From: an uncultured Alphaproteobacteria bacterium
Lineage (GTDB): Bacteria; Pseudomonadota; Alphaproteobacteria; Rs-D84
NCBI GenBank assembly: GCA_944389345.1
Contig: CALXMA010000003.1
Coordinates: 24,294-88,293, forward strand
Length of the DNA stretch: 64,000 nucleotides
Reading direction: 5' to 3'
Shown: in pieces, positions 38,378 through 61,082 of the stretch
Layout of the letters: every line of letters begins with the position of its first letter
How positions within the stretch are numbered: the stretch's first letter is position 1
Notes under the pieces: model-generated
Told to the model about the DNA's origin: nothing
Seen by the model: the letters and a program-made list of their open reading frames with translations, nothing else
Database searches by the model: none
Translations under genes and position numbers: made by a program

Positions 38378-38914
38378 ATGAAAACAAATTTTATATTACA
38401 CATTGGGATATTTGCGATACTAACCACAATACCCAACATCGCCAATGCAATTGGCATCGGTGGTACTGGTTGTATTCAAGGCCCCGGCATGACTTGCGAA
38501 TGTTCTGGTGGAAGCAACGCTGGTGCAACATGCACGGTAAATTCACAATGCCCTGGTGGAACATGCGTAAACGTCGGCGGCGGTATAACGCCGCCCACCC
38601 TTTGCACCCCAGAAAACTGCAAACCGACCACAACCGGTTGGGGTTCATGCGGTGTTGGCGCCAATTCGTATGTCGAATGCGAAGCAACCGCCGAATGCGT
38701 GAACAATTTGTGTGTACGTGGCCAAAATTACCGTTGTGTTGCCGGCGCATACGGCAACCCCAGCGCATCAAACGAAACCGCCTGTGCACCATGCCCATCA
38801 CCCGGAACATCGGCCGCGGGTTCGACCAGTCAATCCGATTGTTATATTCCGGCCGGAACCACCGGGTCGGACAGTACGGGCACGTATAAATATACGGCCA
38901 ATTGTTATTACTGA
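38378..38914 (+). CDS. Small Cys-rich secreted protein (family S)
   Basis: Signal peptide ILTTIPNIANA; C-terminal CYIPAGTTGSDSTGTYKYTANCYY. Confidence 0.85.
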   Translation: MKTNFILHIGIFAILTTIPNIANAIGIGGTGCIQGPGMTCECSGGSNAGATCTVNSQCPGGTCVNVGGGITPPTLCTPENCKPTTTGWGSCGVGANSYVECEATAECVNNLCVRGQNYRCVAGAYGNPSASNETACAPCPSPGTSAAGSTSQSDCYIPAGTTGSDSTGTYKYTANCYY

Positions 38915-38918
38915 TGCA

Positions 38919-38966
38919 TTTCCCCCAAAAAACATTCCCCCATCTTGGGGGAATGTTTTTGTTATT
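38919..38966 (+). terminator. Terminator-containing ~48-bp element, near-identical to 50648..50694
   Basis: tttcccccaaaaaacattccccca(t/c)...gggggaatgttttt; differs from the other copy by one substitution and one indel. Confidence 0.8.
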
Positions 38967-39034
38967 ACGCGCGCATATATGGGGTACGCCAATTTCATAA
39001 AAAAATCCCCATTTCGGGGATTTTTCACAACACC

Positions 39035-40135
39035 TTATGCAACCTTCTTCATATCGCGCTTTACATCACGTATGTATTTACGCAATTCATCAATTGGCAC
39101 CTGGGTCCCATCACGCCGTTCCGCAGACCAATAATCCCATCCGTTAAAACTGACACAATGTTGCAAACGCGCGGCCATAACATGAATAGATGCCTTGCCC
39201 ATCAACGGATGCACCAATTGTCCATCACGTGCAATCATGACACGTTCACCACGCGGACTGACCAAAGTCTGACCAACATACAGCAACCCTGCCTCGATTA
39301 ATTCCTTGAACGCGACGCGAATTTCGGCGCGTTTTGGTGTGGCCACCTCAATCCCAGACAAATCAATGGGCTTTACCGCATCAACACGCGCACGTGCGGC
39401 GGCAACATAATCTTCTTCCCGTTCAATACCGATAAAATTGCGCCCCAATTCCTTGGCCACGGCGGCGGTTGTACCACTGCCCAAGAACGGGTCCAAAATA
39501 ACATCCCCCTGGCGGGTTGACGCCAAAATCACCCGACGCAATAAATCCATAGGCTTTTGAGTATTGTGCAAACTTTTACCATCAGAATCTTTGACACGTT
39601 CTTCGCCCAAACAAATATTTATATTCCAATCAGACCGCATCTGTTTGCCACCATTTAACTTTTTCATTGTTTCATAGTTAAACGTGTACTTACCGGTCTT
39701 ACGTGGTGTTGCCCATATTAATGTTTCGTGCGCATTCGTAAAACGTGTCCCGCGGAAATTCGGCATAGGATTAGTTTTAACCCACACAATATCATTCAAA
39801 ATCCAAAATCCCAAGTCCTGTAAAATCGCACCAACGCGGAAAATATTATGATAACTGCCGATGACCCACATTGCCCCATCGGGTTTCAACACGCGCTTGC
39901 ATTCTGCCAACCACGCCCGCGTAAATTCATCATATTCGGCCATACTGCCAAAAGAATCCCACGAATCCCGAACGGCACGCGCCGCGGTTTGATCTTCGGG
40001 CCGATACAGTGTCTTGGCCCCCAATTGCAAATTATACGGTGAATCTGCAAATACGGCATCCACAGATGCATCTGGTATTCCGCGCATCAGTTCCACGCAA
40101 TCACCGGTCAAAATCTGATTCAGGTATTTTTCCAT
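39035..40135 (-). CDS. ccrM: CcrM-like adenine DNA methyltransferase (beta class)
   Basis: FADSPYNLQL, WVIGSYHNIFRVG, NPMPNFRGTRFTNAHETLIW, DPFLGSGTT, C-terminal NGWDYW domain. Confidence 0.88.
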   Translation of the reverse strand: MEKYLNQILTGDCVELMRGIPDASVDAVFADSPYNLQLGAKTLYRPEDQTAARAVRDSWDSFGSMAEYDEFTRAWLAECKRVLKPDGAMWVIGSYHNIFRVGAILQDLGFWILNDIVWVKTNPMPNFRGTRFTNAHETLIWATPRKTGKYTFNYETMKKLNGGKQMRSDWNINICLGEERVKDSDGKSLHNTQKPMDLLRRVILASTRQGDVILDPFLGSGTTAAVAKELGRNFIGIEREEDYVAAARARVDAVKPIDLSGIEVATPKRAEIRVAFKELIEAGLLYVGQTLVSPRGERVMIARDGQLVHPLMGKASIHVMAARLQHCVSFNGWDYWSAERRDGTQVPIDELRKYIRDVKRDMKKVA

Positions 40136-40310
40136 CTCTCTCTGGTCTCAACCAACATTTTACCACAAAACGCCCCTATTAAAAATTGACCGGCACCCCG
40201 CGGGAACAAATAAAGTTCTTGATTTTTATAAAAAACGCATTTTTTTGGATTTTGCGCCCACATTAAATTCTGCTTTACAGTTTGCATTTTGACTGCTACC
40301 GTATATGGAT

Positions 40311-40811
40311 ATGAGATGTCCATATTGTAATTCTACTGACAGTCGCGTGACTGATTCCAGACCCGATACCGAAGACGCCATTATTCGGCGTCGCCGTGTT
40401 TGCAATCAGTGTGGCGCCAAATTTACGACCGTAGAACGTGTACAAATGCGCGATCTGATGGTCCGTAAAAACAGCGGAAAGTTAGAGGCATTTGACCGCG
40501 AAAAACTGCGTCGCAGTATAAAATTGGCGTGTCGTAATCGTGATGTCGGTGATGAACAGATTGAAAAACTGGTAACATCCATCCATCGCCGTCTGGAAAC
40601 AGAAACGGCCGACGACACGGTAACCAGTGCCTTGGTTGGCCAAATGGTATCAGATTCATTATTGAACCTGGACCCGATTGCATTTGTACGCTTTGTATCC
40701 GTATACCGCAAATTTTCGCGGATTTCGGATTTCAAGAAAATCATCGACCAAATACCCGAGGCTGATGATGATGCATCGGTATGCAAATTGCCCAAGACAT
40801 CACTATTCTGA
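40311..40811 (+). CDS. nrdR: Transcriptional repressor NrdR
   Basis: MRCPYC...DSR...IRRRRVC..C zinc ribbon, ATP cone, FVRFVSVYR. Confidence 0.96.
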   Translation: MRCPYCNSTDSRVTDSRPDTEDAIIRRRRVCNQCGAKFTTVERVQMRDLMVRKNSGKLEAFDREKLRRSIKLACRNRDVGDEQIEKLVTSIHRRLETETADDTVTSALVGQMVSDSLLNLDPIAFVRFVSVYRKFSRISDFKKIIDQIPEADDDASVCKLPKTSLF

Positions 40812-40817
40812 TAATCT

Positions 40818-42548
40818 ATGAAAAAACTTTTCACATTTTTAATAGCACTGTTTTTGCCAATGGCCGCCATTGGGGCGGACCTGCCTAACATAGACGTACT
40901 GTCTGATGCCGACGCCAGTTTATATACACAAATATTCCTGTTACAATCCCAAGAAGAAATCAGCGCGGCACAAAAACTGGAAGAACAACTGACCGATCCC
41001 CTGTTAATGAATGAAGTTTTGTATCAGCGCTATATTTCTGATACATACCGCACACGCGGTCGCGAAATAACCGCATGGATGGAAAAATACTATGATATGC
41101 CGGGGGCGGAACGCATGGTAAAACTGGCCAAAATTAAACAGGCCACCGTGCGCAAGGCGTCTGTTCCCCGTTCTATCAGTGGCGGTGCATCAATTGAAAC
41201 GGCCCAATCAGAAACATGGACGGCGAAAAAATACACTGGTGAAACAAATACCAAGATTAACAAGTTCAAACGCGCCATACGCAGTGGCGCAACAAAAACC
41301 GCCCGTTTGATTCTAGAAGACGCGTCTTTACGCAAAAAATTAACAGAATCTGACTATGGTCGTCTGGCCGGACGATTGTCATTTATATATTACACAAACG
41401 GTGAAACAGAACTGGCCAAGAAATGGGGTTTTGTGGCGGCCGATGCAAAATCAGAATACGGCCTGTGGGCGATGGGATTGCTGTATTTCCAAGAAGAAAA
41501 ATTCGACGAAAGTGAAAAATATTTCAGTGCTATATTAGACCTGGAACAGATAAACAACGCCCGCAAGACCGAGGCCGCATTTTGGGCTGGTCGTGCCGCA
41601 TACGAAAACGGCGAACGTTCCCAGGCAAAAAAGTATTGGAAAATCGCAGCCACATATCCAATGGCGTTTTATGGCGCATTGGCGTCCGTAATGCTGGGGC
41701 ACACACCACGATATGAATTCTTTGAACAAGACTGTACCGACGAAGACATAGACACACTGCGCGAAAGCAAATATGGAAAACGCGCGTTGGCACTGTTACA
41801 GGTCGGCCAAAAAGATCGCGCCGAATTATACTTGAAATATATGATAACCGCGCGCGTATCAGATAAAACATTGCACGCAATAAATTCTGTGGCGACGGCG
41901 TACGGCCTGCCCCGTGTGTCTATCCAGGCATCCAGTCTGGTCCAAGACCGTGGCATTTTGGAAATTGATGACAATATTATATATTCCGCACAATATCCCC
42001 TGCCAGATTGGGAACCGATGGGCGGTTGGTCAATCGATCGCGCATTACTGTTGGCCATCACAAAACAAGAAAGTGGTTTCCACGCAAACGCAAAATCTGG
42101 CGCGGGCGCGAACGGTCTGATGCAAATTATGCCCAGTACCGCCAAGCGTGTTGCCCGTGAAAACCAGGTTGATATGTCTGAAATAGATATGTCTAAACCC
42201 GAACACAATATGTTCTTGGGTCAACAATATATCGTGGATTTACTGGCGCACCCGAACATCAACAATAATATTATAAAAATGTTGGCGGCATATAATGCGG
42301 GCATGGGCACCATGGTTGAATTTGAAAAAAACTTTGAAACATACGACCCATTACTGTACATAGAAAGTTTCCCAACATACGAAACCCGCAGTTATATAAA
42401 GCGCGTTATGTCTAACCTGTGGTTGTATCGCGCCCGTTTGAACCAACCGTTAACCACTATGAAAGATTTGGCAGACGGTGAATGGCCATTGTATAACAGC
42501 GAAGACGAATACGTGCAAAAGCAAATCGCCGACCGCATGTCAATTTAA
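40818..42548 (+). CDS. Soluble lytic transglycosylase (SLT domain with TPR-like region)
   Basis: Signal peptide; QESGF, GLMQIMPSTA, AAYNAG and ETRSYIKRV motifs. Confidence 0.92.
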   Translation: MKKLFTFLIALFLPMAAIGADLPNIDVLSDADASLYTQIFLLQSQEEISAAQKLEEQLTDPLLMNEVLYQRYISDTYRTRGREITAWMEKYYDMPGAERMVKLAKIKQATVRKASVPRSISGGASIETAQSETWTAKKYTGETNTKINKFKRAIRSGATKTARLILEDASLRKKLTESDYGRLAGRLSFIYYTNGETELAKKWGFVAADAKSEYGLWAMGLLYFQEEKFDESEKYFSAILDLEQINNARKTEAAFWAGRAAYENGERSQAKKYWKIAATYPMAFYGALASVMLGHTPRYEFFEQDCTDEDIDTLRESKYGKRALALLQVGQKDRAELYLKYMITARVSDKTLHAINSVATAYGLPRVSIQASSLVQDRGILEIDDNIIYSAQYPLPDWEPMGGWSIDRALLLAITKQESGFHANAKSGAGANGLMQIMPSTAKRVARENQVDMSEIDMSKPEHNMFLGQQYIVDLLAHPNINNNIIKMLAAYNAGMGTMVEFEKNFETYDPLLYIESFPTYETRSYIKRVMSNLWLYRARLNQPLTTMKDLADGEWPLYNSEDEYVQKQIADRMSI

Positions 42549-42597
42549 TAAAAATTGTATTTTATTCCGCCGATAATCGTGATACTGTGTGGTGGAT

Positions 42598-43224
42598 ATG
42601 AAAACAACCCCGACATTTGATATAGAAAACGAAACCGGATTTGAATTGGTTGCCGGCGTGGACGAAGCCGGCCGTGGTCCCCTGTGCGGTCCGGTTGTCG
42701 CGGCGGCGGTTATATTTCCAAAACGCAACATTGAAATCCCGGTTGTAATTCGTGATTCAAAACAAATGACCGCACACATGCGCGCCACCGCATACGAATG
42801 GATAACACATAATACAATATGGGCAACAGCACAATGCAGTGCATCTGAGATAGACGAAATGAATATTTTACGTGCATCACTGACCGCCATGACACGTGCG
42901 GTTCAAAATTTGGGTTGTGCGCCCCAGTTTTGCTTAATAGACGGGAACAAATTGCCCCCTGAATTAAATGCCACACCAATTATTCATGGCGACGCAAAAT
43001 CATTATCCATCGCCGCCGCGTCCATTATCGCCAAAGAAACACGCGACAAAATCATGCATGAATTGGCGCAAATATACCCTATGTATGGCTGGGACAAAAA
43101 TTCGGGATATCCGACCGCGGAACATTTGCACGCCATTGATAAATATGGTATAAACGAACATTATCGAAAAACATATAAACCCGTAAAGGAAAGGATAAAC
43201 AAAAATGAAACTACGCACGATTGA
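42598..43224 (+). CDS. rnhB: Ribonuclease HII
   Basis: GVDEAGRGP, DSK, IDGN and SIAAASIIAK motifs. Confidence 0.96.
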   Translation: MKTTPTFDIENETGFELVAGVDEAGRGPLCGPVVAAAVIFPKRNIEIPVVIRDSKQMTAHMRATAYEWITHNTIWATAQCSASEIDEMNILRASLTAMTRAVQNLGCAPQFCLIDGNKLPPELNATPIIHGDAKSLSIAAASIIAKETRDKIMHELAQIYPMYGWDKNSGYPTAEHLHAIDKYGINEHYRKTYKPVKERINKNETTHD

Positions 43225-44374
43225 AAATCTGGACGTTCGCGGAAAATATATTTTATTACGCGACGACTTTAACGTTCAAATTGTGGACGGAAAAATTACC
43301 GACGCATTCAGAATTGAACAAAGTATGCCAACGATTAACGCACTGCGCGCCGGCGGTGCCCGTATTGCGATTTGCGCACACCTGGGCCGACCAAAGGGTA
43401 CCCGCAACATGGAATTTACTTTGGCGCCCATCGCCGAATACATGGGCGTGAAATTAATCCCAGATTGCCTGGACAAAGATTTCTTGGCTCAAATGAAAGA
43501 CGGCGACGTTGTACTGCTGGAAAATGTGCGCTTTTACCCGGGCGAAGAAAAAAATGACCCAGAATTTTCCGCCCAGTTGGCAAACGGATTCGACATTTTT
43601 GTAAACGACGCATTTGCCGTATCGCACCGTGCCCACGCCAGTACTGTTGGTGTTGCGGAAATATTGCCATCATACGCGGGGAAATTGTTGGCGTCTGAAA
43701 TCGAACACCTAACCGCGGTAATGGAAAATCCACGACGTCCATTGCTGTCCATTGTCGCAGGCAGTAAAGTTTCCACCAAAATCGGTGTATTAAAGGCCCT
43801 GGCAAAATTATCAGACAAATTGATAATCGGTGGTGCACTGGGGACAACATTTAATTACGCACTGGGCGGGCGCGTTGGCAATTCACTGTACGAAGCCGAC
43901 CAAAAAGACACCGCCTTGGAAATTCTGGAATACGCCAAAGAAAATAATTGCGATGTTTTGTTGCCACTGGACAAAGGTGTTGCCAAAGAATTCACACCAA
44001 CCGCCACACGCACAAATAAAAACTTTGATGAAATCCAAGACGACGACATAATAATTGACGCGGGCACAGAAACAACAGAACGCGATGTCGCGGCAATTAA
44101 ATCGGCGGCCACGGTCATCTGGAACGGCACGGTCGGCATGGCAGAATGGCAACCCACATGGTCATACGGCTCATTTGCAATCGCACACGCCATCGCGGAA
44201 CAAACACGCGCCGGCAAACTGGAAAGTATTGTTGGCGGTGGTGATACGGTCGCCGCACTGGAAGCATGTGGTGTCAAAGACGACATAACATACGTATCCA
44301 CCGGCGGTGGTGCATTCCTGGAATTTATCGAAGGTCGCACCCTGCCCGGAATTGCGATACTGGAATCCAAATAA
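43205..44374 (+). CDS. pgk: Phosphoglycerate kinase
   Basis: DFNV, HLGRP, LENVRF, NDAF..HRAHAS, GGGDT and STGGGA motifs. Confidence 0.97.
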   Translation: MKLRTIENLDVRGKYILLRDDFNVQIVDGKITDAFRIEQSMPTINALRAGGARIAICAHLGRPKGTRNMEFTLAPIAEYMGVKLIPDCLDKDFLAQMKDGDVVLLENVRFYPGEEKNDPEFSAQLANGFDIFVNDAFAVSHRAHASTVGVAEILPSYAGKLLASEIEHLTAVMENPRRPLLSIVAGSKVSTKIGVLKALAKLSDKLIIGGALGTTFNYALGGRVGNSLYEADQKDTALEILEYAKENNCDVLLPLDKGVAKEFTPTATRTNKNFDEIQDDDIIIDAGTETTERDVAAIKSAATVIWNGTVGMAEWQPTWSYGSFAIAHAIAEQTRAGKLESIVGGGDTVAALEACGVKDDITYVSTGGGAFLEFIEGRTLPGIAILESK

Positions 44375-44560
44375 ACGATTTGTTATGAATATAAAACGCC
44401 CCCACAAACGGGGGTGTTTTTATATCGTACATCCAACAAAAGAACATCAAAAAACAAATAACGCAACAAGGGACAAAAACATAAACACAACAAACCCGGG
44501 GCACAATATCACAACAAAAAATCCCCGCAATTGCGGGGATTTCAAACTATTACGCGAATA

Positions 44561-45394
44561 TTATTCTGCGTCCAATGCCGATTCGATTTGGTCGGCTGGG
44601 ATTGCACCCGGGAACGCCTGTTCACCGATGATCAAGAACGGTGTACCGGTGATTTCGAAACGCTGTGCCAAATCACGAACATTTCTCAATTCACGTGCAA
44701 CGACTTCGCCTTCCATATCTTCTTTCAGTTTTTTGGTATCCAAACCAACTTCTTCGGCGAACTTCATAACACTCGCTTCGACTTTTTCAGCAATCTTGGA
44801 TTGATCTGACAAATCTTCCTGGCTGTAATAATCACGTGTCATCAACATATCTGTCAATTTAGCCGCTTTTTCAGGATCCTGGATATTTGCCGCGATAACA
44901 GCCTTGGCCGGTGCATCAGACAAATCGCCATGGATAGAGAAGTTTTTGATAACAACGCGAACATCGTCACGGTCTGCCAATACGCGGTCTATTTCACCGT
45001 GTACACGACGGCAGAACGGGCAAGAGAAGTCTGTCCAAACATAAATCGTTTTCTTTGCGTCTTTGCGATTACCCATAATTGGCGCATCACGCATCATTCT
45101 GTCGCCTTCCGAGCGAACAAACTTACGAATCTGTTTGTTTTTTTCGGCGTTCTGCTGTTCCTGCATACCGGTAATCATTTCCTGAACGATAATCGGGTTA
45201 ACCGCGGTCAGATAGTACGGCATATACAGACGGCAAACACTGCCCGCAATCAAGATGATTGCAATCAAAGTAATGGATTTTTTTACAACGATCTTCCCAG
45301 CGGATGGTTTCTTTTCATCGCCCTTTGGCAACAGCATGCCACCAAACAAGAACAACAAGATACCAATCACCAGAACCAAGATTGTCCAAGTCAT
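44561..45394 (-). CDS. Membrane-anchored DsbA/Com1-like thioredoxin-fold protein
   Basis: Two N-terminal hydrophobic helices; DFSCPFC active site; GTP cis-Pro loop. Confidence 0.88.
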   Translation of the reverse strand: MTWTILVLVIGILLFLFGGMLLPKGDEKKPSAGKIVVKKSITLIAIILIAGSVCRLYMPYYLTAVNPIIVQEMITGMQEQQNAEKNKQIRKFVRSEGDRMMRDAPIMGNRKDAKKTIYVWTDFSCPFCRRVHGEIDRVLADRDDVRVVIKNFSIHGDLSDAPAKAVIAANIQDPEKAAKLTDMLMTRDYYSQEDLSDQSKIAEKVEASVMKFAEEVGLDTKKLKEDMEGEVVARELRNVRDLAQRFEITGTPFLIIGEQAFPGAIPADQIESALDAE

Positions 45395-45474
45395 AGTTTT
45401 TCTCCTTTATTTGTTGAACTGTGTACAGATTAATCAAATTTTTTTTTGTATGCAAGAACTAATTAAACATAAAT

Positions 45475-46116: not shown

Positions 46117-46205
46117 TTCGCACGCATTATATACATATACATATAAAAAGTTCACAAAAAAAAGAAACCCCGCAAACGCGGGATTTCGTAAAATACTGGT
46201 AAAGG

Positions 46206-46817: not shown

Positions 46818-46984
46818 TTTATCTGTCCTTTGTTCAAGTTAGGGATAAAACCCAAATTAAAATTTATACACAACACCCACGCATATGGATTGGTGAATTA
46901 TGTGCGTGGGTGGGCAGTGTTCACCCCGGTCCCGACGTGTATCAGACACACACAAGGAACTGTGAACACGCCCCACACACATAA

Positions 46985-47212
46985 TTAACCAAGATTATTG
47001 CGAACGAACGGCATCAGTCCCAAATGACGTGCACGTTTAATGGCAGTTGCCAATTCGCGTTGATCTTTTTGGGAAACGCCACTGATACGCGACGGCACGA
47101 TTTTACCGCGTTCGGTTATATAGTGGGACAATGTTTTAATATCTTTATAATCAATAACCTTGCCCTTTAACGGGTTAGATTTTTTACGATAAATTGCTGC
47201 ACGGACTGCCAT
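46985..47212 (-). CDS. rpsR: 30S ribosomal protein S18
   Basis: IDYKD...[12 protein letters not shown]...QR.LA.AIKRAR. Confidence 0.96.
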
Positions 47213-47550: not shown

Positions 47551-47740
47551 TTTATTTCCTTTGGTCTTAACAGCCGACGACACCATATCGCCAGCAGGAA
47601 CAACCCCAATTATGCCCAAAAGCGCAATAAAATCAAGTAAAATCTTTCATTTTGTTTTAATGCAAAAATATCATAATCCCTATTGACTTAAATCCATAAA
47701 ATTTACTAATATCATTATAAAAGAAACAGAAGAGAGATAC

Positions 47741-49717: not shown

Positions 49718-49743
49718 CCGCGCATACAACAAACTAAATTATC

Positions 49744-49772
49744 TTGTATTTACCAGGCCACTAAACTATAAT
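49744..49772 (+). promoter_or_regulatory. Putative sigma70 promoter of cassette B
   Basis: TTGTAT-17 nt-TATAAT. Confidence 0.7.
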
Positions 49773-49778
49773 CTACAC

Positions 49779-50024
49779 TGAACCTGAACGGATATCGGGT
49801 TCGGGACTTCGAAAATCCCTTACAATGTCGGCGTTATGCGTCGTTAATCCAAAATGGCTTACTTATGCCATTTATCCCGACTTTGGTCGGGTTGCCACAG
49901 ACATACAACAGAACACACGTGCGTTCAAAATCTGTGGGGTCATTACATTGTATGATTTTTCGAACTTCCCGACCACCAGGTTTTTGGTGGTTTTTGTTTA
50001 CACACAAACAAAGGGAAACGAAAA
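49779..50024 (+). ncRNA. Structured leader RNA, copy B (NCCA-ended module 49885-49978; terminator 49971-49995)
   Basis: GGTCGGG / CCCGACC + ACCA; clear sequence similarity to copy C and same architecture as copy A. Confidence 0.78.
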
Positions 50025-50633
50025 ATGAAAAAATCATCACTGCTAATCATACCATCGATAATGATGGGAATATTAACAATCCCCAACACGGCATTTGGAT
50101 TAATTACAACCTGTAATCGGGTAGGATGTATGCCATCGGATCCCAGCATCCAAGTCCGGGGCATAAATTGTGCAATGTCAACCGCCACATGTTGGAGCAA
50201 TGGCACCCACAAAACGGGTGTTGAATCATGCACAATCTGCGAAAGTGGATATACCAAGGTATCCAAATCAACGATCCTAAGCTGTGGGAGTGGTACGGTA
50301 ACCGCGACATATAATACATGTTTACCCACCTGTACCACTTCAAATTGTAAAAGCGACACGTCATGGTCGGCCGCGGGCACGGGATATCAAAAAAAGGCGA
50401 ACCGTTCATGTTCCGACAGCACCACATGCAAAACCACATATTCATATCGTTGTGCGGCGGGATATTATGGTTCTTCGTCAAACGGAACATCCGGGTGCAA
50501 TCCATGCCCCAGTGGCGGCACATCATCCGCGGGTACAACATCTGCAACGGGTTGCTATATTCCATCGGGGACCACGGGTTCTGATTCCACGGGTACGTAC
50601 AAATATACATCCAATTGCTATTGGAAGAATTAA
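50025..50633 (+). CDS. Small Cys-rich secreted protein (family S)
   Basis: Signal peptide ILTIPNTAFG; C-terminal CYIPSGTTGSDSTGTYKYTSNCYW. Confidence 0.85.
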   Translation: MKKSSLLIIPSIMMGILTIPNTAFGLITTCNRVGCMPSDPSIQVRGINCAMSTATCWSNGTHKTGVESCTICESGYTKVSKSTILSCGSGTVTATYNTCLPTCTTSNCKSDTSWSAAGTGYQKKANRSCSDSTTCKTTYSYRCAAGYYGSSSNGTSGCNPCPSGGTSSAGTTSATGCYIPSGTTGSDSTGTYKYTSNCYWKN

Positions 50634-51295: not shown

Positions 51296-53860
51296 TTACA
51301 TTTCGATATCTTCGCACTTTTCCACAGGCGCAGATTCTTCGCATTTCAATTCATTCTTGGCGCCAATTCCCAAGAATCCTTTTTTAACAATAGACTGGCA
51401 CGATTTTGTAACCGTTGACGTACAGTAATGACACGTACGTGTTTCGCGATTAAACAACGACCACATTTCGCGCGTACCACTGGGCAATTCAACCTTGACA
51501 CGATTAGAACCCAACCCGGTAAAAGAATTGACAAGTTCTGCCGCCTTGGACGTCCCCGCGGTGGTATCTTGGACCGCGACGCCCGATGTTGCCCCAGACG
51601 AACGCCCCGCCCCCTGGACCAGCAAACTGTTATCCAGTCCGGCGCCAACCTCGTAACTGATGGCATACGGCGCGGTCAGTGGCGTATCCACGTCGGTTGC
51701 CCCACCCAACACAGAACCATTTGTTGTCGGCAACATCTGACACATATATTGCGCCAAATCGGTCGATGCGTTTCGCGTTGCTTCGGCCACCGCCGTGTTC
51801 AGTTTTGCGTTATAGTTATCCTGTGCCTGGCGCAATGCCGCCATCGCGATTTGCATTTTCACCTGGTTCAACAGGTTCGGGAACCGCCCCGTTGTTCTTT
51901 CACCCGCATCCCCGGTAATCTGGGACAAATCACGTCCGCTGATACAGAATTGAATTTCCGGATCCTGTTCAATCATTTCGATTGTACGGTTAATGGTACC
52001 CGCAATATTATTCAGTTCTTCTTCGATGGTATCAATAATCGCATCGGCATTCGGGACATCTGCATTTCTTTCACGAATCTGCGCCAGATATTCAGACACA
52101 CCAATTTCGCCCGGTCCCAGATACACGGTATTACCGTCTTCGTCTTCGATTGTGGTACCGGTTGCCCCACCCATTTTAATACTGCCAAAAGAAATCATAC
52201 CTGTGACACGATATATATTGCCATCTTTCTGTGAACGCAAAGAACCCGCACCCATTGTATCGTCTGCGGCGAAACGATTACAATCTGTGGTACTGCCACA
52301 AACTTCGGACATTTTTTGTTCCGTCAACATCTGGCACTGTTCCATCATAGAATTATCGATGTTCAGATACAGCCCCATCAACATTTCATCCAAATCGTCC
52401 ATTGAAAAGTTCGGATTATTCGCCTTGCAAACGACCAAACTGTCAATCGGACAAATTTCATGGATATAGTCATAATCCATACCGATACAGTTTTCAAAAT
52501 TAGCACCACAACGTGTTTCATCGGTAAAGCAATCTTTCACTTCTTGGGTACACGCATCGACCCGCATAGCGGCCAACTTGTCTTCCACATACCCCCAAAT
52601 CAACGGTTCCATACGTTCACACGGATCAATTTCAACCTTGCAGAAACTGCGCGCCATTTCTGGTCTTGACAAACACGCATCCATTGTTGCGATTCCTTTG
52701 CCGGCGATATCATCGCGACACGCGGTTGTTATACAGTCTGAAATTTCTGACAAACAAGACTGACGGAATTTTGATTCCGCCTGGTTTTCAGCAAACCGAA
52801 TGGCGGGCGCGGCTTCGCGCAGGAAATTCGGCCAAACCATATCCCGCACGGCCACACATTGATCCAAAACATTTTCACAAATCGGCCGTTTTGCCTCTAA
52901 CATTTCCAACGTAGACGCCGTTATATCATACACATCAACGGTTTCGACGGTGGTCCCGGCGGTACTGACGGCTTCATTATTCTGCATATTTTCAGATGCA
53001 ATAGTCGCGACACAGTTTTCCCAACCTTCACCGCACGCATCAACACCCTGCATACACGTTCTGAATTCAACCATGCACTGCCCCAGGTCATATTTATTTG
53101 CGGCATTAAAACTTTCCTGGTATGCGGCACGCACGGCGGCCTCGGCCGATGCCAATTGATTTTCCGCCTCGCCCCGCTTAGACGCCAAAGAATTTTTATA
53201 TCCCAAACAATCAGATGTAATTTGTCGTGAATATAATTGACGCAAGAATTCTATATCACCCGCACAAGAATCCGGGACCTGGGCCACGCACATATTATCG
53301 GCGGCCACATATAAATCATCGCCGACCAAATCACCCATATTCGATACAGAATTTTCGCCAAAAACATCATCTTCCATATCGTATATGCTGGTATTAAATA
53401 TTTCCAACAAACTGGCGCGACGCTGTTCTCGTTCCTCTTCTGGGGTCAGTTCATCCACATCAATAATATTTCCATCTTCGTCATATCGACGTTGACCGGT
53501 AAAGACAATATCTGCATCGGCACCGGCCTGGACGCGTTCCACACCTTCGGTCATCAATTTATTCGCATTGTCCAATATTTCTTGGATTTCGGCCAGTTCT
53601 TTATCATATTCAATACTGTCATCACTGCACGTGCATGCGCCGCCACTGGTATTATCAGTTATACAGAATTGATCCATACATCCAAAATACGCGTCATAGC
53701 ACGCCTGGTCATACAACCCCGTTGCCTGGATACGTGTTCGTACGGTGGTTCCCTGTTGAATTGCCGACTGTCGCCCGGACGTGGTCAGCCCATAAGAATC
53801 CAGCGCGCACACAACCGCCCCCAGTGCCACCGTACAACCAAGAACCGTTTTAAGTTTCAT
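51296..53860 (-). CDS. Large Cys-rich secreted protein (family L)
   Basis: Signal peptide; CYDAYFGCMDQFC...GACTCS motif. Confidence 0.85.
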   Translation of the reverse strand: MKLKTVLGCTVALGAVVCALDSYGLTTSGRQSAIQQGTTVRTRIQATGLYDQACYDAYFGCMDQFCITDNTSGGACTCSDDSIEYDKELAEIQEILDNANKLMTEGVERVQAGADADIVFTGQRRYDEDGNIIDVDELTPEEEREQRRASLLEIFNTSIYDMEDDVFGENSVSNMGDLVGDDLYVAADNMCVAQVPDSCAGDIEFLRQLYSRQITSDCLGYKNSLASKRGEAENQLASAEAAVRAAYQESFNAANKYDLGQCMVEFRTCMQGVDACGEGWENCVATIASENMQNNEAVSTAGTTVETVDVYDITASTLEMLEAKRPICENVLDQCVAVRDMVWPNFLREAAPAIRFAENQAESKFRQSCLSEISDCITTACRDDIAGKGIATMDACLSRPEMARSFCKVEIDPCERMEPLIWGYVEDKLAAMRVDACTQEVKDCFTDETRCGANFENCIGMDYDYIHEICPIDSLVVCKANNPNFSMDDLDEMLMGLYLNIDNSMMEQCQMLTEQKMSEVCGSTTDCNRFAADDTMGAGSLRSQKDGNIYRVTGMISFGSIKMGGATGTTIEDEDGNTVYLGPGEIGVSEYLAQIRERNADVPNADAIIDTIEEELNNIAGTINRTIEMIEQDPEIQFCISGRDLSQITGDAGERTTGRFPNLLNQVKMQIAMAALRQAQDNYNAKLNTAVAEATRNASTDLAQYMCQMLPTTNGSVLGGATDVDTPLTAPYAISYEVGAGLDNSLLVQGAGRSSGATSGVAVQDTTAGTSKAAELVNSFTGLGSNRVKVELPSGTREMWSLFNRETRTCHYCTSTVTKSCQSIVKKGFLGIGAKNELKCEESAPVEKCEDIEM

Positions 53861-53886
53861 ACCATTCCCCCGCGTAATCACACACA

Positions 53887-56067
53887 TTACATATTAATGT
53901 CTTCGCAACTTTCAATTTCCTGACAGAATTCCTGTTCGCCACCGGCACTGCGTCCTGCAAAGAATCCGCCAACCGCACCAACGACGGCACCAATTGCGGT
54001 TCCCCAACCCGGCGACACCATTGTCCCCGCAGACGCACCGGCCGCCAAACCACCTGCGGCACCCTGGGCCCCGGCGGCACCCTTAGACTGCCCACCGACT
54101 TCGCACACCTGTTGCATACGACAAACGTGGCAATTACGCAACGCCGGTTCAAAGGATACACTGCGTATATAACTATAATTTTTACTGGACTTATCCGGTG
54201 TTTCAACCTGATACATGTTATAGCAGTTTTCTTCCGCTTCTTCCAAACTTTGCTGGCGCGACAGTTCCGCAATCTTAGATTCTAATTCACGCATAGCACG
54301 ATTTTCGGCATTAATTTGCGCAATCATTTTGGCACTGTTAAACACGCTGTCCCCCAGACTGCGTCTGTCCGCGGGCTTTTGCGTATCCATACACGCGGCC
54401 ACGGTTTTATCCTGTTCAAATTGTTCAAAGAATTCATCAACTGTACTTTCCATATTGGAACGCACGGTTTCACGCAACAGCGCCAGTTCTTCTTGTGTAT
54501 CGGGCACTTCGACCAGCGATGCAATCTGGGTATCTGTCGGCAGACAAGACATATCTGTCCCACAAACCGCACCCAATTGTTCACTAAAATAATTCAAACA
54601 GCCCTGCAACATCTGATAATCCATCTGCAACAACACGGCTTGGACAATGATATCGAATTGCGGTTCGTTTTTGCACGATGGGAACATGCTCTGTGGGCAC
54701 AGTTCCGCGATTTCGACCGCGCTTTTTCCAACACATTCTGGCGCGGTAAAGTTATCACCGCATCTACTGCGCATACATTGGTCAATATCATTCTGACAGA
54801 ATTGTGTTTGCAAATATCCCAATTTGTCATTAACCGCCGTTTTAATTCCCGGTATCATTTCTTCGCATTCGTCGATAACTGGACAAACACCCGCCGCAAC
54901 ATTAACGTCGGTCAAACACGCAGAATTGGTTTCTGGCGAACAACTGTCTTCCAGACACAACTGAATCCGCGCCAAACATGTCGCACGTGCATTTCTGTCG
55001 GCATATTTGGCCGCATCGACCAAGATAGATTCGGCCTCGGCCTCCCAGTCTTGCAACACATATTCACGCACGGCCATACATTGATCCAAAACATTTTCGC
55101 ACGCATTCGCACGACGATTTAACAAATCCGCATCCAAACAGTTTTCAAAATTCACACCACAACCGCCCTTGTCTGCGATACAAGACCGATACGCCAACAA
55201 ACATTCACCGCGATTATATTTGTTTGTCGTATCTAACATTTCCAAACGCGCCTGACGAACGGCGGCCTCGGCCGTGCGCTTGTTTTGTTCCGCAATGGAT
55301 TTCTGATCTGCCAAATACGTTTCAAATGTTTTACAGTCTTGAACAATCTGGCGCGCATACAGCATTTCTTCCATTTCGGCATCATCACCACAAGATTTCA
55401 ATCTGTCGGCACAATATTCCGCCGCCATTGCGTACAGGTTATCGCCAATATCATAATCCGCCCCCAAACCATCGGACACATCGTTGCCACTGTTAATCCA
55501 TTCGGTAAAACTTATACCCGACACACGTGAACTTTTCTGTGCTTCTTCACTTTCGCCAAAGACCAAACGCGCCTGTGCCCCCAGTTGTTCACGTTCAACA
55601 CCCTCGGTATACAACAGGTCTGCCTCGTTTTGAATTTTCTGAATTTCTTGAATTAATGATTTTGCCTGATTTATATTAGACGAACACGCACAGCGTCCAC
55701 CCTCGGTTTCATCCAGCAAACAGAATTCATCCATACACGCCCGATACGCATCGCGACAAGACTGTGAAACAATCGCACCGGTTTCACCATCACCACCGTC
55801 ATCTTTGACATCGTCATCATCCGCATTATCCGGCGTCGTTGTTGTTCCGCCACCCGACACAGATGTCGACCCACCACCCGGTTTTATCGACAATGTCGGC
55901 ATAGACGCAGTATTACTGTCTGACAAATCCACCGACATATTCCCGGAATGCAACCCGGCCTGGGCCACACGATTCACCCCCACGCGCACGGTTCCCGACG
56001 TTCTGTCCACACCGAACGCGACACCTGGGCAAACGGCCAACAATGCAAAAAAGAATCCTAGTTTCAT
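53887..56067 (-). CDS. Large Cys-rich secreted protein (family L) with C-terminal glycine zipper
   Basis: Signal peptide; CRDAYRACMDEFC...RCACSS; GAAGGLAAGASAGT..PGWGTAIGAVVGAVGG. Confidence 0.85.
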   Translation of the reverse strand: MKLGFFFALLAVCPGVAFGVDRTSGTVRVGVNRVAQAGLHSGNMSVDLSDSNTASMPTLSIKPGGGSTSVSGGGTTTTPDNADDDDVKDDGGDGETGAIVSQSCRDAYRACMDEFCLLDETEGGRCACSSNINQAKSLIQEIQKIQNEADLLYTEGVEREQLGAQARLVFGESEEAQKSSRVSGISFTEWINSGNDVSDGLGADYDIGDNLYAMAAEYCADRLKSCGDDAEMEEMLYARQIVQDCKTFETYLADQKSIAEQNKRTAEAAVRQARLEMLDTTNKYNRGECLLAYRSCIADKGGCGVNFENCLDADLLNRRANACENVLDQCMAVREYVLQDWEAEAESILVDAAKYADRNARATCLARIQLCLEDSCSPETNSACLTDVNVAAGVCPVIDECEEMIPGIKTAVNDKLGYLQTQFCQNDIDQCMRSRCGDNFTAPECVGKSAVEIAELCPQSMFPSCKNEPQFDIIVQAVLLQMDYQMLQGCLNYFSEQLGAVCGTDMSCLPTDTQIASLVEVPDTQEELALLRETVRSNMESTVDEFFEQFEQDKTVAACMDTQKPADRRSLGDSVFNSAKMIAQINAENRAMRELESKIAELSRQQSLEEAEENCYNMYQVETPDKSSKNYSYIRSVSFEPALRNCHVCRMQQVCEVGGQSKGAAGAQGAAGGLAAGASAGTMVSPGWGTAIGAVVGAVGGFFAGRSAGGEQEFCQEIESCEDINM

Positions 56068-56214
56068 GAAACCCACCCTACATAATTTATATATAATTTT
56101 ATCAAATGCGCCCCATCGGTGCAAGCAGATATAAAAATATCTTGCAATTTTTTTGATAACGCCATATTATTACACCTGAATTTTTTTCAGTTAATACAAC
56201 AACGGAATATATGT

Positions 56215-56460
56215 ATGGCAAAAGATGATGTAATCGTTTTTTCTGGCACGGTCGAAGATAAATTACCGAACACTATGTTTCGGGTACGCTTGGAAAACGG
56301 CCACGAAATTTTGGCGACTGTTTGTGGCAAAATGCGCAAGGCACGCATTTGGGTAAACGTCGGCGAACGCGTACGCGTTGAAATGACCCCATATGATTTG
56401 GACAAGGGACGCATAACATTCGTTGAACGCAACCGCCCATCCACGGAACAGCAACAGTAA
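56215..56460 (+). CDS. infA: Translation initiation factor IF-1
   Basis: MAKDDVI...[13 protein letters not shown]...GKMR...[12 protein letters not shown]. Confidence 0.97.
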
Positions 56461-56575
56461 TCAAAAAAATCCGCCAACGGCGGATTTTTATCAATATATT
56501 TTTGCCCCAATATGGATAAATAACACTTTCCAATACGGCATATTTTTGTTATCATTTACCTGTATAAAACGGGAA

Positions 56576-59176
56576 ATGAGGAATTTTTTTATTTTCATCA
56601 TTGCGTGTTTAATCGGCATCGCAAATGCCGATGGTGCCGTACGTGATTCAGACGCCGTTTCCCGTGGCGGGAAATCTGCCACCGACACAAATACAATCAT
56701 TGCCCGCACGACAACGGTTGTCCCAACCACCCGAACATCCGAACGCGCACTGGGTTCGCGCGAAGCGACAACGTCCGGTGGACGTGGAACAAACATTGTA
56801 TCGCGTGGCGACAATATATCACGTGGTGCGAACCGCACCGCAACAGACACCACCGTTGCCCGTTCGGCGCGCACCACAACAACCCCACAAACGACCACAT
56901 CTGGGCGCAGTGCGACAAAAACCGTTTCCCGAACATCAAATATGTCGCGCGCATCGGCAACAAATACGGTTGCACGTTCTGCCCGCGCGACCAGTGTTGC
57001 CCCCGTATCTGTAACGAATACATTTGGCACAGATTATAATACATGCCGTAATGCGTACTTTACATGCATGGACCAATTTTGCGCCACCGCGAACGACCAA
57101 TATCGCAGATGTGTGTGCTCGTCGCGCCTGACAGATATCCAAGAACGCGAACGCGCCCTGTCACAAACGGCGGGCCAAATCCAAGATTTCAAAGATTTGA
57201 ATATAGAGGTTATACCAAAAACCGCCGAAGAAGTGCACGCCATGCTGAACGCAACCGAAGGTGAATTGGCCATCATCGAAGATAAATCTGCATCGGCCCA
57301 ACAATTGGCAGGCATCAGCGAGGTTTTATCATCCGCCAAGCACCAGGCGTTAAACACACTGGGGACACTGGACATTGCAGGCGACATCAATCAAATATGG
57401 GCAACAACAGATTTGGCATCTGGGGCAAATATATCAAACCTGACTGGCGAAGCGTTATATAACGCCGTCCACGCCCAATGCGTTGAATTAATTTCCGCCC
57501 AATGTCCATCCAGTGCGACACTGAACATGGTCGTATCTGCGTACGGCATGTACATAGAAAATGATTGCACAACATTGTACAATGCCCTGGATACCCAGTT
57601 GAACCAGGCGAACAGCACAATACGCGAAACAGAACGTGAAATGAATACGGCGCGTCTGGACAACTATAACGCCCACAATTCAACATCTATCAACGATTGT
57701 ATTGCCCAGGTACGCGCCGACATCACCGCGGACACTGCATGCGGTACAGATTATGTTCATTGCCTGGACGTAACGGGCCAGTACTTAAATCGTGATACTG
57801 GCGAACCCATATATACACCTAATTTCTATCAATTGGCGAACCAGGTTTCACTCGAAGGCGACGTCCTGACCAATCCAACAAACCGAATGATTGTTGCGGA
57901 ATTAAACAGCAAGCGTATCTATGCAGAACGCGGTTTGGAAACATGTCGCGACATTGCGAACGACGTCTGGGACGAATTCCTGCGCCAGGCGATTGCCGAA
58001 ATATACCAAGGCCAACAGGAAAAAATCCGTACCGTCAAGAACGAATGCCTGGACGTGGTCAACGCCTGCTATGATGAGCAGAGTGAATCGTTAAAAGATT
58101 TTAGCAATATCAAAGAAGAATTATTGGCGGGTTCACGTCTGGAATTATCCGAAGAATTATGCGAAGAAAAACTGTACGCGTGCAGTAATTTATACGGCGA
58201 CCCCAATGGCGAAGGTCTGGAATTATTAATAACCGCAATGCACGACATCACAGATCAAAAGATTGCCAAAGAATGCAAGGCATTATTAGAGGCCTTTGCG
58301 GTTGACACCTGCTCTACGCCCAGCAACGACAGTTTACACGCATATCCGTACGCGTGCCGTGTTTACGCGCCTGGTGAACAAAAGTATGCAACCAATTGGT
58401 TCTGTAATCAATTGCAATGGGAAAACACATCCGGTGGTGCGGGTTCCGGGATTATTCCGGGTGGCGGTGGTGGTGGCGGTTCATCCACCAACGGATACGT
58501 ATGCCCAGAATCAATTATGTACACATCATGCCGTGCGGGATACTTTATGGCGATATACGATTCAAACCGTGGCGGTTACGCATACAACGGCACACCAACG
58601 GCGGGCAATTCGTGTCAACCATGTCCCGCGGGTTCCAAATGTCCTGGTGGCACCGAAGCCCCCGAAGGTGGCGATTTCTCGCCAACGGATACAAATTGTG
58701 GTCCCGACTATGCGGGCAGTCTGTATCAGCGTATGGTTAAATACGCGACCCAGGTCTGTGTACGTCCATCTTATTACGATGCGATTATGACGGGTGAAAT
58801 GGATATTCCGATGACGGTATTGCAAGACGTCAACGTGGTAATGGATTCCATACGTGTTGACATGGCCAAGGCCCTGTCTGCGGAATGCGACAGATTGGGT
58901 GGCCAATGGGTTGACACCCAATGGTTGGACGTTATGGAAAACACCGACACGAACGGCAACGGGACACTGGACAATATATCCGATAATGTACACGACAAAA
59001 CAGATCACGTATTGTTCAAATATTTCTATGATGAAACTGGTGCAAATACCAAATGGGGATTCTGTGCGGAAATCCCGACCGACGAAGAAGAAGCAACAGA
59101 AAAAGAGGAAGAAGAAGGCGAAGGCGAAAGCGAAGGCGAAAATTCCGGCGAAGAATCTGGTGGTGAAACGACGTGA
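56576..59176 (+). CDS. Large Cys-rich secreted protein (family L) with T/R/S-rich N-terminus and acidic tail
   Basis: Signal peptide; CRNAYFTCMDQFC...RCVCSS; most similar to 17812..20982. Confidence 0.85.
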   Translation: MRNFFIFIIACLIGIANADGAVRDSDAVSRGGKSATDTNTIIARTTTVVPTTRTSERALGSREATTSGGRGTNIVSRGDNISRGANRTATDTTVARSARTTTTPQTTTSGRSATKTVSRTSNMSRASATNTVARSARATSVAPVSVTNTFGTDYNTCRNAYFTCMDQFCATANDQYRRCVCSSRLTDIQERERALSQTAGQIQDFKDLNIEVIPKTAEEVHAMLNATEGELAIIEDKSASAQQLAGISEVLSSAKHQALNTLGTLDIAGDINQIWATTDLASGANISNLTGEALYNAVHAQCVELISAQCPSSATLNMVVSAYGMYIENDCTTLYNALDTQLNQANSTIRETEREMNTARLDNYNAHNSTSINDCIAQVRADITADTACGTDYVHCLDVTGQYLNRDTGEPIYTPNFYQLANQVSLEGDVLTNPTNRMIVAELNSKRIYAERGLETCRDIANDVWDEFLRQAIAEIYQGQQEKIRTVKNECLDVVNACYDEQSESLKDFSNIKEELLAGSRLELSEELCEEKLYACSNLYGDPNGEGLELLITAMHDITDQKIAKECKALLEAFAVDTCSTPSNDSLHAYPYACRVYAPGEQKYATNWFCNQLQWENTSGGAGSGIIPGGGGGGGSSTNGYVCPESIMYTSCRAGYFMAIYDSNRGGYAYNGTPTAGNSCQPCPAGSKCPGGTEAPEGGDFSPTDTNCGPDYAGSLYQRMVKYATQVCVRPSYYDAIMTGEMDIPMTVLQDVNVVMDSIRVDMAKALSAECDRLGGQWVDTQWLDVMENTDTNGNGTLDNISDNVHDKTDHVLFKYFYDETGANTKWGFCAEIPTDEEEATEKEEEEGEGESEGENSGEESGGETT

Positions 59177-59255
59177 TATCTGGCGCCAAATAATGAATAT
59201 GTTATCTTGCCTTGGATAAAAATTTTTGTTAAAATTAAGAAAACGAGAGAAGAAA

Positions 59256-59975
59256 ATGAAAAAAATATTCGCTGTTTCTGTTATGTGTTTAATGTTTGCG
59301 CCATCGGCGTTTTCTGCGGTTCCATGGTGGGAACAACCGACGATATGTAAATTGGATCCAACGGATTGTTATTCGACAATGGGCGCCGGCTATGATGGCG
59401 AGGCATGGGATTCCGAAACTGGATGTTGGGGCATGAAATACATCTGTCCTGAGGCGTTAAAGACCCCTGGTTCATATCAACCCGTGCTGATGGGACGCCA
59501 AGAAATTGCCAGTGGTAACAAGATTAACATAGACTATGACACAAACATTTTGAACGGCGATTGTTTTGGTGTTCGCAAGACGACCGATAATGGCGCGATG
59601 GCATCTGTTAACGGCGAATATGTGCGTGTATGGTGCAACGGCGTTCTGGACAATCCGGACCCGGACAATTATCTGCCAAATGGCGAATTGCCAGAAAACG
59701 GTCGCGAACCAACATGTTCGGAATTGGCACGCAACGGATTTATGGCGACCCAGGCGGGTAAATGCTTTGGTAAATATTACGATCCTATGAAATATAAGAT
59801 TGAATGTGGCGACCCGAATTCTATTTTTGCAACAAACATATTGGAATTGAATGGCGCGGATCCATCGTATACGTACGCGAATGCCCCCACAACGGCGGAT
59901 GACGCGGACGACATATTCGACCGGATGCAGGAAAAATCCGCGTCCCAGCGCAAGATATATTTCCAAGACGATTAA
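59256..59975 (+). CDS. Cys-containing secreted hypothetical protein
   Basis: Signal peptide ending AFS/A; multiple cysteines; followed by a hairpin and T run. Confidence 0.75.
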   Translation: MKKIFAVSVMCLMFAPSAFSAVPWWEQPTICKLDPTDCYSTMGAGYDGEAWDSETGCWGMKYICPEALKTPGSYQPVLMGRQEIASGNKINIDYDTNILNGDCFGVRKTTDNGAMASVNGEYVRVWCNGVLDNPDPDNYLPNGELPENGREPTCSELARNGFMATQAGKCFGKYYDPMKYKIECGDPNSIFATNILELNGADPSYTYANAPTTADDADDIFDRMQEKSASQRKIYFQDD

Positions 59976-60113
59976 CACGATATAACAAACATCCCGCGTA
60001 ATGCGGGATGTTTTTTTCCTGTATTGTAAAAACACGGAAATGTGCACATGCACACGTTCATTACATGTACCTGTGTCGGGTGTGAAAAACCGTAAATACA
60101 AATTGTTATCGCA

Positions 60114-60380
60114 TCAGTAATAGCAATTACCAGAATACGTGTACGACCCGGATCCATCGGACCCAGATGTCCCGGACGGTATATAGCAACCACTGATGCC
60201 GGACGTACCGCCATCGGACGCACTGCCGGGCGACGGACACGTCGCGCAATCGCCACTTGCCAGGTAATATCCCGAATTACATGATGAATACGTTTTTGTT
60301 GTTGCCGTACATGCACCGTACGCAACATTTGCCACGCCACACATTGCAACGATGGCAGAAAACAAGAATAACTTTCTCAT
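60114..60380 (-). CDS. Minimal Cys-rich secreted protein (family S, 88 aa)
   Basis: Signal peptide MRKLFLF...AYG; C-terminal CYIPSGTSGSDGSGSYTYSGNCYY; ATGA overlap with the upstream gene. Confidence 0.82.
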   Translation of the reverse strand: MRKLFLFSAIVAMCGVANVAYGACTATTKTYSSCNSGYYLASGDCATCPSPGSASDGGTSGISGCYIPSGTSGSDGSGSYTYSGNCYY

Positions 60381-60754
60381 GATATGCCCCCTGTACACGC
60401 CAAGCACGATATTGGTGACGGCGGATTTGATGTTACTCCGTAACATGCATACGTGGTGGTGGTTGGTGCACACGTACCGTAATTTTGCGTATACGATCCC
60501 TTGGAATCAGAACCACTGGTGGCGTCGCGACGACATTCGTCATACAAAACGTTATACGACCACCCTGTTGGACAAGTATAACTTGTTCCCTGTTTACCAT
60601 TCGGACAACAATATGACCCCGATCGGCAACTCGGAGAGCGCACACAAGTTTGCACGCTCATACATAACGTTGGCATTACCGCCCCAGCGGGCATTATGGG
60701 AACAGTCAGTGTTGCGAACACAACGGCCGTCCCGGCGATTAGATATTTTTTCAT
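60377..60754 (-). CDS. Small Cys-rich secreted protein (divergent relative of family S)
   Basis: GGGGGA RBS; signal peptide MKKYLIAG...AGA; internal TSGSDSKGSYT motif. Confidence 0.8.
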   Translation of the reverse strand: MKKYLIAGTAVVFATLTVPIMPAGAVMPTLCMSVQTCVRSPSCRSGSYCCPNGKQGTSYTCPTGWSYNVLYDECRRDATSGSDSKGSYTQNYGTCAPTTTTYACYGVTSNPPSPISCLACTGGIS

Positions 60755-61081: not shown

Positions 61082-61082
61082 T

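Follow-up and report, generated by a model that had tools for sequence, protein, structure and literature searches.

A 64,000-nucleotide stretch of DNA (the window; GenBank assembly GCA_944389345.1, contig CALXMA010000003.1, positions 24,294 to 88,293) from an uncultured alphaproteobacterium of the genus Candidatus Enterousia, order Rs-D84, encodes members of a family of small secreted, cysteine-rich proteins in which variable N-terminal heads are joined to a constant C-terminal module. The module family is real, lineage-specific and outside every pilus family tested. From cysteine counts, a shared N-terminal motif and predicted folds we infer that its members are probably the subunits of a tip, spacer and base assembly that is donor-strand-like, chaperone-free and disulfide-locked.

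The module family

A hidden Markov model (HMM) of the module was seeded from 23 regular-expression matches to the C-terminal motif named in a preliminary description of the window, and was run on the 11,980 stop-to-stop open reading frames (ORFs) of the host genome (0.89 Mb in 23 contigs, 98.8% complete). It recovered 24 ORFs at E<=1.7e-12, with the next ORF at E 0.99, and the module is C-terminal in all 24. Eighteen members are intact single genes directly behind a leader RNA, five are second genes in leader-headed pairs, and one is broken and stands behind a decayed leader (C1:100403, minus strand). Within the window the motif ends the ORFs at 38378-38914 (+), 50025-50633 (+) and 60380-60114 (-), as the preliminary description had it. 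The variable N-terminal parts that it reported are also borne out, since median pairwise identity is 0.23 in the heads versus 0.64 in the module (19 of the 24 members, 171 pairs). Two of its points are revised. The conserved part begins 15-20 residues earlier than noted, at a C-x-x-G-Y-Y hairpin, and the ORF at 60754-60377 (-), which does carry only an internal TSGSDSKGSYT, is not a degenerate member but belongs to a conserved partner class with 11 cysteines in eight of eight cases (counts from scripts).

The constant part spans about 60 residues and consists of the C-x-x-G-Y-Y hairpin, C-x-x-C-P, a G-T-S...S-T-S-I-T-x-C segment and a 23-residue tail. Module positions 44 and 65 become cysteine jointly in six of six cases, and positions 51/58 and 50/59 covary, a pattern as for a long hairpin. 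The modules of two paralogues with 19% head identity share an identical block of 74 nucleotides, which suggests that heads have been exchanged among paralogues.

The count across the genome and its relatives that the preliminary description had proposed gave module matches in 79 of 121 sampled family genomes (1 to 41 per genome) and in 0 of 29 genomes from five other families of the same order. Among 1.84 billion cluster representatives there were 709 matches at E<=0.001; homologue counts given below refer to the best 150 of these 709, with lengths of 61-353 amino acids (aa).

Judged by sequence, the first half of the module is an ephrin-receptor-like or TNFR-like cysteine repeat. The Pfam family Ephrin_rec_like (PF07699, cut-off 23.1 bits) matches two of the 24 members above the cut-off and two more below it, with the three window members unmatched; the matches stop at the cysteine of C-Y-I-P, leaving the last 23-24 residues outside the profile. 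The Ephrin_rec_like family was also found among Atlas neighbours of the module at 0.83-0.86, which we treat as a lead only. The tail has no match in Pfam, NCBIfam or PDB sequences, and the module profile has none at E<=10 among the sequences of solved structures. Only the first half thus matches a known repeat type, and the known domain of unrelated function that the preliminary description had considered did not appear.

A head-less member (a spacer, see below) was modelled with AlphaFold in its mature form of 66 residues (146 rows; predicted local distance difference test, pLDDT, 80). The model has predicted strands at 16-19, 22-25, 43-45, 50-53 and 56-59 and a short one at 64-65; residues 1-15 are without secondary structure. 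Fold matches were weak (4-1BB, TNFR2, RANK and EphA; Foldseek E of at least 1.4, Z score of at most 3.1), the best Z of 3.1 coming with a root-mean-square deviation of 5.9 over 56 aligned residues, and the top rows were nearly all TNFR-type or related cysteine-rich domains. A row from Saprospiraceae (18 residues, E 1e-3) was taken as a chance match.

Cysteine parity

Cysteines were counted in the mature proteins with predicted signal peptides called by a simple script, which made no call for 32 of the 150 homologues. The count is odd in 112 of the 118 homologues with a called signal peptide (p 2e-26), and three of the six even-count homologues are head-less small members. As a crude control, 29 of 83 other secreted-looking ORFs of the same genome are odd. 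The genome's own headed members, called tips below, are odd in 17 of 18 cases by script and in 18 of 18 after hand correction of one cleavage site. An odd count means that one cysteine is spare; as the heads are largely unrelated, it is likely housed in the constant part, and with the four repeat cysteines paired in sequence the last one, that of the C-Y-Y end, is left over. Parity and pairing order therefore make it likely that the C-Y-Y cysteine is unpaired within its own chain.

The tail could instead be a structural end-cap, its cysteine pairing in-chain and the odd cysteine lying in the heads or being metal-binding. The six cysteines of a spacer could close first onto last, and the last cysteine is shifted by three places in two homologues. 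However, a spare cysteine would then be required in every one of the unrelated heads, head cysteines upstream of the constant part are even by hand count (12 in the protein at 50025, 10 in a member on contig C18), and residues 1-15 of the spacer model form no strand. We regard an end-cap as highly improbable.

The plug motif and the giant proteins

The 88-92-aa members begin, right behind the signal peptide, with C-x(5-9)-Y-[TS]-S-C-x-x-G-Y-Y, which we call the plug motif. Two giant cysteine-rich proteins of the genome begin in the same way, one of 2,223 aa on contig C1 and the other split between contigs C11 and C15. A profile of signal peptide plus plug matches 81 of 121 family genomes versus 0 of 29 others, in small ORFs as well as in ORFs of up to 4,469 aa. 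It occurs in 70 of 79 module-bearing genomes versus 11 of 42 without the module, a comparison that counts related genomes as if independent and includes small members with both features. The first cysteine of the spacers was considered as a lipoprotein cysteine and rejected, as no lipobox was seen by eye.

The giants fall into classes by their C-terminal ends, and their cysteine counts, taken from the plug cysteine onwards, differ accordingly. G1 giants, mostly 1,200-4,400 aa, end in C-x-x-G-Y-x-x-W, which differs from the end of the small spacers; their counts are even in 14 of 16 of a first set and seven of eight of a second. G2 giants end in a cysteine-poor beta-domain and are odd in seven of seven and 18 of 20, respectively, the latter made up of 12 of 13 classed by script and six of seven classed by eye. 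The second set came from 40 regions fetched once the parity rule had been noted, of which seven were cut by contig ends and two held no ORF. Counted from the plug cysteine, the genome's own giants have 194 (G1) and 107 (G2) cysteines. The four 88-92-aa members have six cysteines each, and small spacers counted from the plug cysteine are even in 13 of 13 intact cases, a 14th, truncated member having five. Parity thus fits three classes, with tips odd, spacers even (13 of 13 small, 21 of 24 G1) and base odd (26 of 28 G2). Such a pattern would arise from one free cysteine, the first, in all plug-bearing proteins and a second free one at the end of spacers and G1 giants.

The units of a giant repeat follow the order repeat half, hairpin, C-[YF]-[YW], turn, Y..C, 7-9 residues, C-x-x-G-Y-[YW]. 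In 140 long cysteine-rich frames, a plug-like unit lies directly behind 119 of 163 C-[YFH]-[YW] motifs versus 108 of 9,337 other cysteines, although many of the motifs are homologous copies. Nine giant repeats have a tail-like [LF]-x-D-x-x-G hairpin. An AlphaFold model of one such natural repeat, with hairpin and plug-like unit in cis (105 rows, pLDDT 91.7), is a three-stranded meander (strands 22-30, 36-45 and 50-62) that places C42 and C55 on the neighbouring strands two and three; such models give positions only, not bonds. Foldseek found nothing at E<=0.001 for it (best E 1.3). Whereas this giant repeat has three strands, the spacer model ends after the second. The family tail would then correspond to strands one and two of the giant repeat and the plug, present on spacers and giants alike, to strand three, which makes the plug a candidate N-terminal donor strand. 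Judging by the models, a spacer looks like one giant repeat cut between strands two and three. Positions 26-66 of the full module profile align to 89 giant repeats (P 85.8, E 6e-7), the known repeat half contributing most of the match.

The spare tail cysteine might alternatively join two members tail to tail into homo- or heterodimers of heads, leaving the giants uninvolved. Trefoil factors and mucins have C-terminal dimerising cysteines, and odd tip parity together with the terminal edge strand of the model would fit a two-fold disulfide. The even spacers, the odd G2 giants and the in-cis coupling of C-Y-Y and plug are left unexplained by such dimers, which we consider unlikely.

The G2 end domain occurs in 110 of 121 family genomes and in 0 of 29 others, with one copy in the host genome. 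Its presence in 77 of 79 module-bearing genomes is uninformative, because nearly all family genomes have it anyway. An Atlas search gave no lead (best 0.78). Some genomes (G061, G103, G144) hold 14-19 matches, including ORFs of 130-300 aa, which suggests that the domain serves surface sorting generally in the bacterial family.

Proposed fibre assembly

In the assembly that we favour, the tail, predicted to form a beta-hairpin of two strands with C-Y-Y at its end and a probably unpaired cysteine, would serve as a docking socket. After export and oxidation, the N-terminal plug strand of another protein predicted to be exported would complete the socket hairpin, and the spare cysteines of plug and socket would bond, forming an interchain disulfide lock. 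Tips (the 18 intact genes of the genome) would consist of head plus socket. Spacers, comprising the 84-99-aa members and the G1 giants, would combine an N-terminal plug strand with a C-terminal spare cysteine. The base would be formed by G2 giants, which would contribute a plug only and whose beta-domain end is the presumed cell anchor. A tip would thus dock on one or more spacers or on G1, the chain ending on G2. The product would be a covalent surface fibre presenting the variable heads at its end, where they may bind host or partner cells. The preliminary description had proposed that the module sorts, anchors or polymerises polymorphic heads; the spare cysteine and the complementary strand favour anchoring or polymerisation, while a sorting role has become less likely.

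Several observations weigh against this assembly. No plug match was found in nine of the 79 module-bearing genomes, and the G1 end lacks a C-Y-Y socket. The parity rule is broken by three of 24 G1 and two of 28 G2 giants, and a third C-terminal type is mixed (one of three odd); the giants are homologous, so their counts are not independent, and seven of the 20 second-set G2 giants were classed by eye. Matched by itself against the giant repeats, the tail reaches no significance (E 0.49; E 0.22 with a subset); a tail-only comparison reached E 0.014, but five of 60 column shuffles scored as high, and a tail HMM scored at best 8.6 bits on giants versus 5.5 in reversed sequences. The homology of tail and giants is therefore argued from position, cysteine spacing and the logic of the fold. 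Finally, no export route for a fibre was identified in the genome, which has two Slam-family barrels and one secretin.

The Slam barrels bear on the idea that the tail is a C-terminal sorting signal for an outer-membrane transporter, with the odd cysteine attaching the cargo to another envelope carrier. The module lies at the C-terminus or at most two residues from it in 135 of the 150 homologues, and a lipoprotein-Slam gene pair is preceded by the same leader as the module genes. Yet 15 of the 150 have 4-26 further residues beyond the module, a similar unit recurs inside the giants, and head-less spacers are kept across species, all of which speaks against a sorting signal; we rate it as quite unlikely.

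The small, diverse, disulfide-rich heads, in a lineage predicted to be partner-dependent (PMC12306168), would also suit released effectors or toxins whose free thiol couples to host or partner-cell molecules such as mucus. This is very unlikely in our estimation, as Pfam (23 of the 24 members scanned) showed no toxin or enzyme family above cut-off, NCBIfam (21 members) gave one irrelevant match only and no toxin, enzyme or pilin family, and plug motif and giant parity would be left unexplained.

Genes and leader RNAs of the window

The features of the window that belong to this system are as follows.

38087..38355, plus strand: leader RNA, type A, preceding the 178-aa tip-class gene
38378..38914, plus strand: tip-class gene, 178 aa; predicted signal peptide 1-24; 17 mature cysteines (odd)
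38783-38911, plus strand: module of the 178-aa tip gene; putative spare Cys codon 38903-38905
49743..50005, plus strand: leader RNA, type B; weak Rfam sRNA-Xcc1 match at 49885-49982 (29.8 bits, cut-off 53)
50025..50633, plus strand: tip-class gene, 202 aa; predicted signal peptide 1-25; 17 mature cysteines (odd)
50496-50630, plus strand: module of the 202-aa tip gene; putative spare Cys codon 50616-50618
60805..61082, minus strand: leader RNA, type B; weak Rfam sRNA-Xcc1 match at 60917-60824 (38.2 bits, E 0.004, cut-off 53)
60377..60754, minus strand: partner gene, 125 aa; 11 mature cysteines (odd); internal GSDxKGSY hairpin
60114..60380, minus strand: spacer-class gene, 88 aa from the second ATG; 6 mature cysteines (even)
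about 60314-60264, minus strand: N-terminal strand with cysteine of the 88-aa spacer; Cys codon 60311-60309
60248-60117, minus strand: module of the 88-aa spacer; last Cys codon 60125-60123

The partner gene is the first of a two-gene operon and the spacer gene the second, the two overlapping by ATGA. We considered partner and spacer as a split tip (11+6=17) and dropped this as unproven; the partner hairpin seems to be closed in cis. A fifth two-gene operon of the genome, at C1:44639-45306 (+), has an unrelated first gene with 13 cysteines (counted by hand) followed by a module gene with 12, so that odd and even are combined as in the partner-spacer pairs.

Elsewhere in the window, a 391-aa secreted cysteine-rich protein (21972-23147, plus strand; 22 mature cysteines, even) matches PF07699 above the cut-off and has another C-terminal tail behind the same repeat half; it is possibly another end type of the fibre system. 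A DsbA-like gene lies at 44561-45394, and 51296-59176 encodes three large secreted cysteine-rich proteins (863, 745 and 917 aa) of another family, without the module. At 35195-35600 (+), a tRNA is followed by three copies of a unit about 113 bp apart, each holding a hairpin together with a duplicate of the tRNA's 3' region.

Leader RNAs and the genes behind them

The preliminary description placed the window members downstream of a conserved leader RNA. This is so for all of them, the spacer at 60380 being the second gene behind that at 60754, and it extends to 23 of the 24 module genes of the genome. There are two leader types and 31 full copies, of which 23 head module operons and eight precede other genes. 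The latter are a truncated cysteine-rich gene, two 62-aa ORFs, a gene for an outer-membrane-like protein (C1:55001), three lipoprotein-like genes, one of them standing before a Slam gene (C1:122868-125234) and a second at C6:1700, and an autotransporter-like gene (C3:89223). With lipoprotein, Slam, autotransporter-like and outer-membrane-like genes behind it, the leader heads a wider surface regulon. The truncated gene (C1:77444, minus strand; 63 aa) lies behind an intact leader and is a case of decay. The 62-aa ORFs (C2:109143 and C5:28422, both minus strand) are similar to each other and non-secreted, and the leader of one lacks a matching 5' loop. An intact tip at C14:569 (-) has a leader without the 5' hairpin, a further sign of decay.

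In relatives the leader was present at 23 of 32 module loci, one of these matches being weak and one locus having been fetched twice. Among 60 giant loci it was upstream of the giant in none; four matches were all downstream, and two relatives (L140 and L188) carry a leader immediately behind a G2 giant.

In the type A leader at 38087..38355, the loop of the 5' hairpin is complementary to 7 nucleotides directly before a long-range helix, which overlaps a terminator-like hairpin and whose 3' arm is complementary to the ribosome-binding site. Across the genome, the 5' loop is complementary to 7 nucleotides beside the terminator-overlapping helix in 25 of 30 cognate versus 31 of 438 non-cognate pairs, so that this seed covaries from locus to locus, and the 3' arm pairs over at least five bases with the region before the start codon in 16 of 28 leaders, with imperfect start calls. 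For the most part the seeds are private or common to two or three loci; this suggests control of each locus separately, not through a single master switch. We therefore propose, from these complementarities, that tips may be controlled locus by locus through antisense or attenuation. Two metatranscriptome runs (shares 0.12-0.13) contained contigs over the leader at 60833-61031 and 60889-61037 and one 90-nucleotide piece in the partner gene; being assembled contigs, they show neither the level nor the ends of the RNA.

In having an upstream sequence complementary to the loop of a downstream core that overlaps a terminator-like hairpin, the leaders resemble P4 CI, P1 C4 and sRNA-Xcc1 as described in PMC4825925 and PMC2864571; the sRNA-Xcc1 comparison (RF02221) also drew on PMC12189769. 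In contrast to C4/CI (RF01695, RF02221), the 31 copies are chromosomal and precede surface-protein genes, not phage lytic genes. Both sRNA-Xcc1 matches listed above stay below the Rfam cut-off, and no C4 row stood among the matches listed at E<=1.

Comparison with known systems

In chaperone-usher pili, according to PMC10673952, all subunits but the distal one donate an N-terminal strand to complete a neighbour's fold, and a terminator or anchor subunit accepts no further strand and anchors the rod (FimH, FimG, FimA and FimI in type 1 pili; PapH in the P pilus). The proposed fibre would have the same logic and polarity. It would differ in its covalent link, an interchain disulfide, and in its dispersed genes with 24 paralogues, and the predicted module folds are small disulfide-rich hairpins or meanders of 66-76 residues, too small for the Ig-like sandwich of chaperone-usher subunits. 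Searches for the usher (PF00577) and the PapD chaperone (PF00345) returned no candidates in the genome, while positive controls were detected.

Type V pili (FimA/Mfa1) of Bacteroidota occur in gut or oral anaerobes and consist of tip, stalk and anchor joined by strand exchange without a chaperone; their pilins are made as lipoproteins, are cut by a protease, donate a C-terminal strand and fold into a double beta-sandwich (PMC13655056). The tip, stalk and anchor classes and chaperone-free strand exchange would be shared. The module proteins differ by signal peptides that look AxA-cleaved (by eye and simple script), by a donated strand that would be N-terminal and by another fold; their alignments show no lipobox by eye, and no pilin family matched in Pfam or NCBIfam.

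Among eukaryotic proteins, the likeness to Ephrin_rec_like (PF07699, GCC2/GCC3) and TNFR-type domains concerns the first half of the module only: the spare-cysteine tail lies outside the profile, 22 of the 24 members are below the cut-off, and there is no transmembrane anchor. Giardia variant-specific surface proteins (PF03302) likewise form a large paralogue family with a CxxC-rich variable N-terminus, a constant C-terminus and a gut habitat. Their constant C-terminus is a membrane anchor, whereas the constant end of the module is a polar hairpin with a cysteine, and the best PF03302 score was 26.7 bits against a cut-off of 31.4.

The literature searched held no description of the module family; its coverage did not extend to a 2023 paper on Ca. 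Enterousia that PMC12306168 cites, and PMC12306168 itself does not mention the family.

Conclusions

As a tentative proposal, held at a little under even odds, we suggest a new class of surface fibre, consisting of chaperone-free polymers of eukaryote-like cysteine repeats. Its subunits would be excised or extended forms of a single repeat, linked head-to-tail through a donated strand plus an interchain disulfide. One or two giant stalks, made constitutively, would bear any of 20-40 swappable tips, each tip under its own phage-type antisense leader with a sequence-coded switch. If so, pili could be built in a new way, by a covalent plug (about 15 residues) and socket (about 25) that join through a strand and a disulfide, and the pair would be a candidate protein-coupling tool.

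Ca. Enterousia are uncultured gut bacteria with reduced genomes of about 0.9 Mb and many hypothetical proteins; they are probably partner-dependent, and their mode and target of attachment are not known (PMC12306168). With 24 genes given over to one display system, and as many as 41 matches in relatives, that system looks like their main contact apparatus. If the display reading is true, the heads would serve as baits for finding the partner cell.

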